Shown one piece after another: positions 14,215 to 15,526 of a stretch of 23,836 nucleotides of DNA. Position numbers and translations under genes: made by a program. The notes beneath the pieces are model-generated. The model did not search any database. It saw only the letters and a list, made by a program, of their open reading frames with translations, and was not told the DNA's origin. Position 1 is the stretch's first letter; each line of letters opens with the position of its first letter. This DNA is from a virus (taxonomy: Duplodnaviria > Heunggongvirae > Uroviricota > Caudoviricetes), in IMG/VR virus record IMGVR_UViG_2648501149_000019; one strand, given 5' to 3'.

Positions 14215-14412
14215 ATGCTAAAACAGCAGGATATGACCGAAACTGCCAGAGTGGTGTTTAATGAGTTAAGCGTCACCGAACCGGCGACCGTCGGGGAAAT
14301 TGCGCAGAATACTTACCTTTCACGCGAGCGCTGCCAGTTAATACTGACCCAGCTTGTTATGGCGGGTCTGGCCGATTATCAGTTCGGTTGTTACAGACGC
14401 CTTCCTCAGTGA
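14215..14412 (+). CDS. Small winged-helix DNA-binding protein (possibly PapI/FaeA-like)
   Basis: Track ORF 14032..14412, trimmed to ATG 14215 (MLKQQDMTETARVVFNELSVTEPATVGEIAQNTYLSRERCQLILTQLVMAGLADYQ...) with SD 'AAAGGGA'. The family assignment is a pattern-level judgement. Confidence 0.5.
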   Translation: MLKQQDMTETARVVFNELSVTEPATVGEIAQNTYLSRERCQLILTQLVMAGLADYQFGCYRRLPQ

Positions 14413-14587
14413 AGGTTTTTTAATTTGTGGTAATGGGCGGCTGGTGGGTGTTAGCGGCACCTGCCAGCCATCTGCCCATGCGTTGGAATCACAAGCAAAC
14501 CTCAGGCCCATCTGCTTTGCGCAAAAGCGGTATGAGCCTATCAGAGAAGTGCTTATTGATCTATGGTTAATACTGTAAAAATATCAA

Positions 14588-15526
14588 GTGAAGCCCGAGG
14601 GCTGGGATAACCAGTGGAAGGGCGACGATGATTACCTGCAATGGCTGGAGCAGTGTCTGGCGCAGTTCTGGCGGGTACTGAAGCCTGCCGGAAGTCTTTA
14701 CCTGTTCTGTGGTCATCGCCTGGCATCTGACACCGAAATCATGATGCGTGAGCGCTTTAATGTGCTGAACCACATTATCTGGGCGAAGCCGTCCGGACGC
14801 TGGAACGGGTGCAATAAGGAAAGTCTGCGGGCGTATTTTCCGGCAACAGAACGCATTCTGTTTGCAGAACATTATCAGGGACCGTATCGCCCGAAAGATG
14901 ATGGCTATGTGGCACAGGAGCGCGAGCTAAAACAGCACGTCATGGCCCCGCTGATTTCTTACTTTCGTGATGCGCGTAAATCACTGGGAATAACGTCAAA
15001 ACAGATAGCGGAAGCCACCGGAAAGAAAAACATGGCTTCGCACTGGTTTGGTACCAGTCAGTGGCAGTTACCGAACGAGGGGAATTACAACAAATTGCAG
15101 GCGTTGTTTGCGCGTGTTGCGGCAGAAAAACATCAGCGCGGGGAACTGGAAAAGCCACACCACCAGCTGGTCAGCACATACAGTGAACTGAACCGTCAAT
15201 ACGCTAGCCTGCTGGAAGAGTTCAAATCTTTGCGACGTTATTTTTCCGTATCAGCTGCCGTTCCGTATACGGATGTCTGGACGCACAGGCCCGTGCAGTA
15301 TTATCCGGGCAAACATCCCTGTGAAAAACCGGCGGATATGTTGCGGCAGATAATTGAGGCCAGCAGTCGCTCCGGTGATTTGGTTGCCGACTTTTTTATG
15401 GGTTCAGGTTCAACGGTAAAAGCGGCGATGGCACTGGGGCGTTGTGCGATTGGTGTTGAGCTGGAGACCGAACGTTTTGAGCAGACAGTCAGGGAAGTTC
15501 AGGATTTAATCGTTTGGAACGGATGA
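14588..15526 (+). CDS. DNA methyltransferase-like protein (N4/N6 family, beta-class order) lacking the (D/N/S)PP(Y/F) motif; possibly truncated or inactive
   Basis: 312-aa ORF. AdoMet-binding motif 'FFMGSGST' near the C-terminus and an 'RVLKPAGSLYLF' region typical of this family. No DPPY-like motif anywhere. Starts at GTG without a clear SD. In-frame TAA four codons upstream (14576-14578). Confidence 0.7.
   Translation: MKPEGWDNQWKGDDDYLQWLEQCLAQFWRVLKPAGSLYLFCGHRLASDTEIMMRERFNVLNHIIWAKPSGRWNGCNKESLRAYFPATERILFAEHYQGPYRPKDDGYVAQERELKQHVMAPLISYFRDARKSLGITSKQIAEATGKKNMASHWFGTSQWQLPNEGNYNKLQALFARVAAEKHQRGELEKPHHQLVSTYSELNRQYASLLEEFKSLRRYFSVSAAVPYTDVWTHRPVQYYPGKHPCEKPADMLRQIIEASSRSGDLVADFFMGSGSTVKAAMALGRCAIGVELETERFEQTVREVQDLIVWNG

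Follow-up and report, generated by a model that had tools for sequence, protein, structure and literature searches.

A Probable Pseudogene of the M.EcoGII Methyltransferase Family in a Late-Operon Cassette of a Lambdoid Prophage

A methylase remnant and its missing catalytic motif

The window analyzed here is a stretch of 23,836 nucleotides from a virus of the Caudoviricetes (IMG/VR record IMGVR_UViG_2648501149_000019), and it is a lambdoid prophage with an integrase, an S24 repressor, Rha, replication genes, a Q antiterminator, lysis genes, and a terminase. The feature under study is an open reading frame (ORF) at 14588-15526 on the plus strand, a remnant of a methylase of the M.EcoGII family that retains residues 41-349, including the target recognition domain (TRD) and motif I (FxGxG), behind an apparently fortuitous GTG start. 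A gene for a small winged helix-turn-helix (wHTH) protein and a conserved leader lie upstream of the remnant, and three tRNA genes lie downstream. The locus is very probably a recently inactivated member of the M.EcoGII family, that is, a pseudogene produced by a 95-bp deletion and devoid of methyltransferase activity.

The ORF encodes 312 amino acids and carries the motif DLVADFFMGSGST close to its C-terminus, where it aligns with invariant columns of the methylase family. Its product matches Pfam PF01555 (N6_N4_Mtase) with 131.5 bits (cut-off 26.7), the match covering only profile positions 20-219 of 221, and it aligns with the PADLOC model MTase_II (type II methylase) only from position 57 of 333. 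The catalytic motif of beta-class enzymes is motif IV, DPPY (PMC5778455, PMC7544214), and a regular-expression scan for [DNS]PP[YFWH] in all six frames of 14000-15600 returned zero occurrences. An in-frame TAA at 14576-14578 lies four codons upstream of the GTG at 14588, and no Shine-Dalgarno sequence is present in the bases preceding this codon (AAAAATATCAA). All of these features had been described in an earlier note on this DNA, and each was confirmed. The same note pointed to an upstream ORF in the same frame (14354-14578) that also lacks the motif; it is indeed present, has no Pfam match, and is nothing more than the intergenic leader read in that frame.

M.EcoGII is a 349-residue beta-class enzyme with an N-terminal DPPY motif, a central TRD, and a C-terminal FxGxG motif; a prophage of E. 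coli encodes it, the lysogen does not express it, its over-expression is toxic, and it methylates adenine in any sequence context (PMC5778455). The remnant is identical to M.EcoGII residues 41-349 at 265 of 310 positions (~85%, an approximate value). Phage 1720a-02, which has been named as bearing an enzyme very similar to M.EcoGII (PMC5778455), is among the direct DNA matches of the window and has an identical gene order. The methylase family comprises 2,240 clusters at E <= 1e-20, with nearly all of the best 120 being 345-359 amino acids long, and in IMG/VR there are 93 leader-bearing contigs with an intact ORF of 340-365 amino acids that includes DPPY. No structure of M.EcoGII was found in the PDB, where the top-ranking sequences belong to distant beta-class enzymes (E ~1e-24).

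Comparison with intact relatives locates the lesion. A megablast search with 14000-15560 recovered Stx (Shiga toxin)-converting and related lambdoid phages as well as 2,877 of 5,426 complete E. coli genomes, with the matches split in two pieces and spanning ~95 bp beyond the query. Among the best 25 matches in the complete E. coli genomes, all 25 contain the extra 95 bp (276 bp versus 181 bp in the window). The homologous gene of phage phiP27 and of E. coli AST217 starts 150 nt downstream of the small upstream gene and bears the annotation DNA methyltransferase, with 352 or 349 amino acids. A three-way DNA alignment of the window, phiP27, and AST217 displays a single clean 95-bp gap between flanks that are near-identical and fully collinear. 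Defined relative to phiP27 L24 and the E. coli prophage alleles, the deletion has its junction at 14585/14586 (plus strand) and removes codons 9-40 of the intact gene, including those for TDPPYF. The intact homologues (345-359 amino acids) have the N-terminus MxNTVKISS...LIVTDPPYFKVKPEGW, which reads MANTVKISS(Y/C)ELINADCLEFIQTLPENSVDLIVTDPPYFKVKPEGWDNQW and is also given as MANTVKISS..TDPPYFKVKPEGW. Through the region of the lost motif, these proteins read ...DLIVTDPPYFKVKPEGWDNQW, so the expectation that the motif should sit just upstream of KPEGWDNQW was correct. The intact homologues neither start at 14588 nor use an alternative catalytic motif. The missing DPPY is the result of one defined 95-bp deletion and not a chance feature.

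Because 95 equals 3n+2, the deletion also shifted the reading frame. The native methylase start (14563-14610, plus strand) retains its ATG at 14563 and the first eight codons of the intact alleles, and it now opens an out-of-frame ORF of 15 codons (MVNTVKISSEARGLG, then a stop). The GTG at 14588 sits within this short ORF, and after the stop at 14608-14610 the next start codon is Met52. According to an AlphaFold2 (AF2) model of an intact homologue, from which only the better-predicted N-terminal 30 residues were used (pLDDT score 74-86 for residues 1-30; 60.9 overall), the deleted stretch would correspond to two short strands, a helix, and a strand leading into DPPY. Since the microhomology at the junction does not exceed 3 nt (AGT), even with one mismatch allowed, no deletion mechanism can be assigned.

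The remnant contains no further stops and no further frameshifts. The ratio of nonsynonymous to synonymous substitution rates (dN/dS) takes values of 0.10-0.18 when the remnant is compared with six intact alleles, inside or close to the range observed for pairs of intact alleles (0.08-0.15). The columns conserved to 95% or more among 22 intact homologues show three deviations in the remnant, all conservative (D61E, D206N, and K274R), compared with zero to eight in the intact members. Because both the dN/dS of the remnant and its conserved positions resemble those of intact alleles, the evidence points to a recent deletion. The exact 312-residue product is on record from two contigs only, without a protein accession, and the 90%-identity cluster that holds the remnant contains 3,716 sequences, mostly of 348-349 amino acids. 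Over 12.9 kb, a contig of 79,831 bp from GCA_002075135.1 shows 18 differences and one gap relative to the window, yet the two are identical across 14200-15530. The deletion, rather than being an assembly artefact, is therefore inherited within a small lineage. The exact 24-mer across the junction has no match in the GTDB species representatives and none in IMG/VR. One metagenome match to a 22-mer of the junction (locus L060) was attributed to chance, as the locus is otherwise dissimilar to the window.

Independent damage to the methylase gene is not unusual. Among 46 species-representative loci, three have methylase genes that are broken in other ways (L053, 3001-4039; L056, 3001-3989; and L059, 3001-5180), and L069, L121, L124, and L152 are further independent inactivations. 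In Erwinia tracheiphila the frame shifts at residue 52, in a Pantoea the gene is split, and in Enterobacter sp. Bisph1 it is interrupted; premature stops in the methylase were observed on four IMG/VR contigs. For the leader-bearing IMG/VR contigs, 93 intact methylase ORFs compare with five that are damaged or interrupted, one of which reflects an assembly gap.

The winged-helix gene and the methylase leader

The gene at 14215-14412 (plus strand) is intact and encodes a 65-residue protein of PHROG 331 (function unknown). An AF2 model (pLDDT 89.7) has the topology H-H-H-E-E, in agreement with the winged helix that had been read from the sequence. The exact protein sequence occurs on at least 1000 contigs, and the family comprises 334 clusters, whose named matches are all from Enterobacterales and are labelled 'TrmB family' or 'DprA-like WH'. 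Weak Pfam matches to DprA_WH, TrmB, and MarR_2 recur among the members, with DprA_WH and TrmB the best. The resemblance to the PapI/FaeA regulators that had been proposed for this protein was not borne out by the profile and fold comparisons, and that identity was rejected: a search of 20 family members against Pfam gave no FaeA (PF04703) match at E <= 10, PapI is absent among the PDB-sequence matches of the family profile, and a Foldseek search returned generic winged helices (e.g., O-methyltransferase dimerisation domains, IclR, OhrR, SelB, and MarR regulators) with E no better than 1e-3. No fimbrial genes were found among the profiled ORFs of the window.

Of the 46 species-representative loci, 30 have the wHTH gene upstream of their methylase, and about one third lack it; most of the loci that lack it keep the leader and the methylase, with other genes or nothing in its place. 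The gene is also damaged in some relatives: in Mangrovibacter yixingensis (L043, 2647-2715) it has a stop after codon 22, and in Erwinia tracheiphila (L053, 2660-3004) its stop codon is lost and the ORF continues through the leader. The wHTH gene is a frequent but dispensable neighbour of the methylase.

Between the two genes lies a structured methylase leader of ~133 nt (14430-14562, plus strand), the distance from the wHTH stop to the methylase AUG being 142-154 nt where both genes are intact. The last 131 nt of the leader have a mean identity of 84% among 36 loci; in the same loci, the adjacent gene has only 39% identity at its four-fold degenerate sites, with 78% identity between the proteins, and the leader is more conserved than the four-fold sites in all 584 divergent pairs. 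Its folding is better than that of shuffled sequence (z = -2.8). In an alignment of 39 sequences, five pairs of the hairpin P1 (14439-14469) have compensatory changes, and the covarying pair 14473/14497 occurs as CG (19), AU (7), UA (7), and UG (4), with no unpaired case. The frequent G-U pairs favor RNA over DNA. Two mutually exclusive folds are available, each ~95% paired: in one, 14487-14496 pairs with 14551-14561, and in the alternative, 14540-14544 pairs with 14556-14560. Both folds pair the bases directly upstream of the AUG at 14563, before which there is no Shine-Dalgarno sequence. For the long-range helices, one or two divergent sequences (Proteus and Serratia) supply most of the compensatory events.

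An Rfam search with four leader sequences gave no match at E <= 1, and a literature search with an 18-mer of the leader gave none either. The same 18-mer is present on at least 120 IMG/VR contigs, and a methylase ORF follows wherever the available sequence sufficed and its start could be located. A coding role for the leader was rejected: in E. coli alleles a 45-codon ORF opens at 14433, its counterparts in Klebsiella and Salmonella end after 16 or 32 codons, and indels of 1 nt are present. An operator function for the leader palindrome, bound by the wHTH protein, is unlikely because the leader persists at loci without the wHTH gene. The leader may be the part of the locus most likely to be new. 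We tentatively consider, at somewhat less than even likelihood, that it is a structured, previously undescribed RNA that regulates in cis, possibly by switching between two folds, and that gates the translation of a toxic, non-specific methylase whose start lacks a Shine-Dalgarno sequence. Such an element may sense a ligand (e.g., S-adenosylmethionine or S-adenosylhomocysteine), bind a protein, or be processed by an RNase; its fold and its function are both hypotheses.

Two further observations concern leader sequences. The window has a C at 14476 (CTGCCCATG), where nearly all other leaders have a T (CTGCTCATG); this C breaks the U-A pair 14476/14494 of one fold, and in the alternative it turns a G-U pair into G-C. 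In Trabulsiella odontotermitis, a second, partial leader (L017, 2014-2083; profile positions 5-74, including P1) lies ~800 nt upstream of the complete one.

The late-operon cassette and its neighbours

The wHTH gene, leader, and methylase belong to a cassette whose order is terminator, wHTH gene (often), leader, methylase, and tRNA genes. In intact phages, the leader measures ~150 nt and the methylase ~350 amino acids. Its upstream edge is an intrinsic, tR'-like terminator at 14070-14092 (plus strand), a GC hairpin followed by six T. The terminator is present in all seven aligned loci, where the stems differ in sequence yet remain self-complementary through compensatory changes and the T-run is invariant. 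The 35-60 nt immediately upstream are common only to loci with the same type of Q and differ in those with other antiterminators. A consensus scan identified a weak candidate late promoter, pR'-like, at 14009-14036 (plus strand; TTTACA-16-TATGCT), and ~35 nt separate this promoter-like site from the terminator. In Stx phages, a pR'-tR' arrangement yields the small RNA (sRNA) StxS (PMC7547250). The candidate promoter and terminator (14009-14092) may similarly produce a short pR' transcript that ends at tR', resembling StxS. The complete cassette was found after at least three different antiterminator families, and a literature search for it returned nothing useful. The methylase would be a Q-dependent late gene, which fits the reported silence in the lysogen.

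The cassette closes with three tRNA genes (15567-15810, plus strand) with the anticodons CAT, TCG, and TCT, an arrangement that is also annotated in related phages. ARAGORN assigns the first of these (15567-15642, plus strand) as tRNA-Met (CAT); the records of related phages give tRNA-Ile (ileZ) for the corresponding genes, implying a lysidine-modified CAT anticodon. After the tRNA genes, in the position that stx occupies in Stx phages, is a TerB-family pseudogene (15981-16399, plus strand). Its MFGIFGKKARRAATEIKKF is followed by a stop, after codon 19, and then by a frameshift, and the listed 98-residue GTG ORF at 16103-16399 represents only its 3' part.

On the other side of the cassette, a minus-strand gene (12688-13875) for a 395-residue DUF4236 protein (PHROG 17982) that has no PADLOC match occupies a slot that separates Q from the late-promoter region. 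In relatives, this slot contains a GIY-YIG nuclease gene (phiP27), a copy of ompC (L007), or three unknown genes (L002), a pattern suggestive of a cargo-gene hot spot. Further downstream, a region upstream of the lysis genes (16571-16751, plus strand) has a strong Rfam match to the sRNA STnc100 (117 bits; gathering score 47), and 16985-17075 on the minus strand has a weak, sub-threshold match resembling Esr41.

Interpretation and comparison with known systems

The intact ancestor of the remnant would have been a beta-class, sequence-non-specific N6-adenine enzyme of lambdoid and Stx-type prophages of Enterobacterales, encoded early in a Q-dependent late operon. As judged from the literature, such an enzyme would be silent in the lysogen and would presumably methylate replicating phage DNA after induction, allowing the progeny to escape restriction. 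On the low-confidence model, the deleted codons 9-40 would encode a pair of beta-strands together with a helix and the loop with DPPY that binds adenine. Ribosomes that start at the preserved AUG at 14563 would halt after 15 codons because the deletion shifted the frame, and the 312-codon ORF would be the open frame left over downstream, which lacks its own ribosome-binding site. The deletion leaves the wHTH gene, the leader, and the tRNA genes untouched. The suggestion of a 5'-degraded, inactive orphan methylase in the earlier note is thereby supported, the lesion being the deletion at 14585/14586 together with its frameshift.

Several considerations weigh against the interpretation of the locus as a recent pseudogene. 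The loss of both protein and activity is inferred from sequence, and the undamaged 312-codon frame, which fits a recent deletion, would also be expected of a truncated protein under selection. Additionally, the model of the intact homologue is of low confidence as a whole (pLDDT 60.9), the M.EcoGII reference behind the approximate 85% identity was taken from a machine-read PDF supplement (SUPREM, PMC11551740) with visible errors of optical character recognition, and the rarity of the allele rests mainly on an exact-protein look-up, the comparison with E. coli genomes covering the best 25 matches. The truncated protein might be made after all, e.g., by re-initiation at the GTG at 14588 once the 15-codon ORF has been read, and act as a dead protein that binds S-adenosylmethionine or nucleic acid, much like the repurposed binding protein suggested in the earlier note, or as a partner with a dominant-negative effect on intact M.EcoGII paralogues. 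The 312 open codons with their intact TRD and FxGxG regions and undegraded conserved positions would suit such a role, as would a native leader and AUG that bring ribosomes to within 25 nt of the GTG; dimers are considered the only active form of beta-class methylases (PMC7544214), and many E. coli genomes carry the methylase gene in multiple copies, at up to eight places per genome. However, the GTG has no Shine-Dalgarno sequence and lies inside the short ORF fed by the native start rather than after it, with no start codon beyond 14608-14610 until Met52; folding is doubtful, as strands of the Rossmann core are deleted (low-confidence model; domain limits from PMC11551740); the product is found on two contigs only; and no sign of selection specific to the truncated form was detected, a recent deletion explaining the absence of decay equally well. 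We regard a functional truncated protein as very unlikely. Even less probable is an error of assembly or sequencing as the source of the 95-bp gap, with an intact methylase gene in the actual genome. The source is a draft whole-genome shotgun assembly, and genomes carry several similar prophages of this family, a situation that can mislead short-read assemblers; yet the junction is clean with fully collinear flanks, GCA_002075135.1 has the identical junction despite 18 differences and one gap over 12.9 kb, and a collapsed repeat would not make a novel junction within a single-copy coding segment.

A different question is whether the wHTH protein is functionally paired with the methylase, as a PapI/FaeA-like or C-protein-like regulator in a methylation-dependent switch. 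The two genes adjoin each other with the spacer of 142-154 nt wherever both are intact (E. coli, Salmonella, Klebsiella, and many other genera), and the wHTH protein is highly conserved. Neither the FaeA/PapI profile nor the profile search of PDB sequences links the protein to PapI, though, and its fold matches are generic; moreover, 16 of the 46 species-representative loci have no wHTH match, most of them keeping the leader and the methylase. The parallel to Dam-methylated GATC sites that had been offered, as a speculation, is also unsupported, since the M.EcoGII-type family is sequence-non-specific and not a GATC enzyme, and it would leave no site-specific methylation mark to be read (PMC5778455). 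Such a switch is improbable.

The remnant is a lineage-restricted pseudogene of a known, characterized, and very common prophage methylase family, a real but ordinary one. As the pseudogene of a single strain lineage, it matters little on its own and serves as an example of prophage decay, with the neighbouring TerB-like gene also broken. For annotation pipelines and methylome predictions, 14588-15526 should not be counted as an active methyltransferase, and the puzzle of the missing motif gives no pointer to a new catalytic mechanism. The comparison also places the M.EcoGII family in a conserved late-operon cassette and exposes a covarying leader RNA that has no Rfam family. This leader may explain how phages hold a toxic enzyme silent until lysis, which bears on the use of M.EcoGII as an expressed tool.

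Among known systems, E. coli YhdJ (NCBIfam NF008572, an adenine-specific DNA methyltransferase) shares PF01555 and the beta-class motif order with the remnant but is a distant relative only: against the NF008572 equivalog cut-off of 292, the remnant scores 81.1 bits, which rules it out as a YhdJ equivalog, and intact phiP27 L24 scores 116.1 bits. The PapI/FaeA regulators of fimbrial phase variation (PF04703) resemble the wHTH protein of the window in small size and winged-helix fold; they differ in profile, and the window gene stands in a phage late operon rather than in a fimbrial operon with Dam GATC sites, where those regulators act together with Lrp. The closest characterized enzyme is M.EcoGII / M.EcoGI, a non-specific N6-adenine DNA/RNA methyltransferase from a prophage of E. 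coli O104:H4 C227-11 (GenBank EGT69837.1). The intact relatives of the window gene share its beta-class layout (N-terminal DPPY, central four-helix TRD, and C-terminal FxGxG) and its prophage setting, whereas the window copy lacks codons 9-40 with DPPY, is frameshifted, and is probably unable to form an active enzyme. The Stx2e phage phiP27 is 91% identical to the window in DNA over the wHTH gene, the leader, and the methylase, its counterparts being L23 (NP_543075.1) and the 'DNA methyltransferase' L24 (NP_543076.1). It shares the order Q, variable slot, wHTH gene, methylase, and tRNA genes, as well as the type of Q and the sequence upstream of the terminator. The two differ in that phiP27 has an intact gene for a 352-residue methylase and carries stx2e after the tRNA genes, whereas the window has the deletion and, in the position of stx, the broken TerB-like gene.

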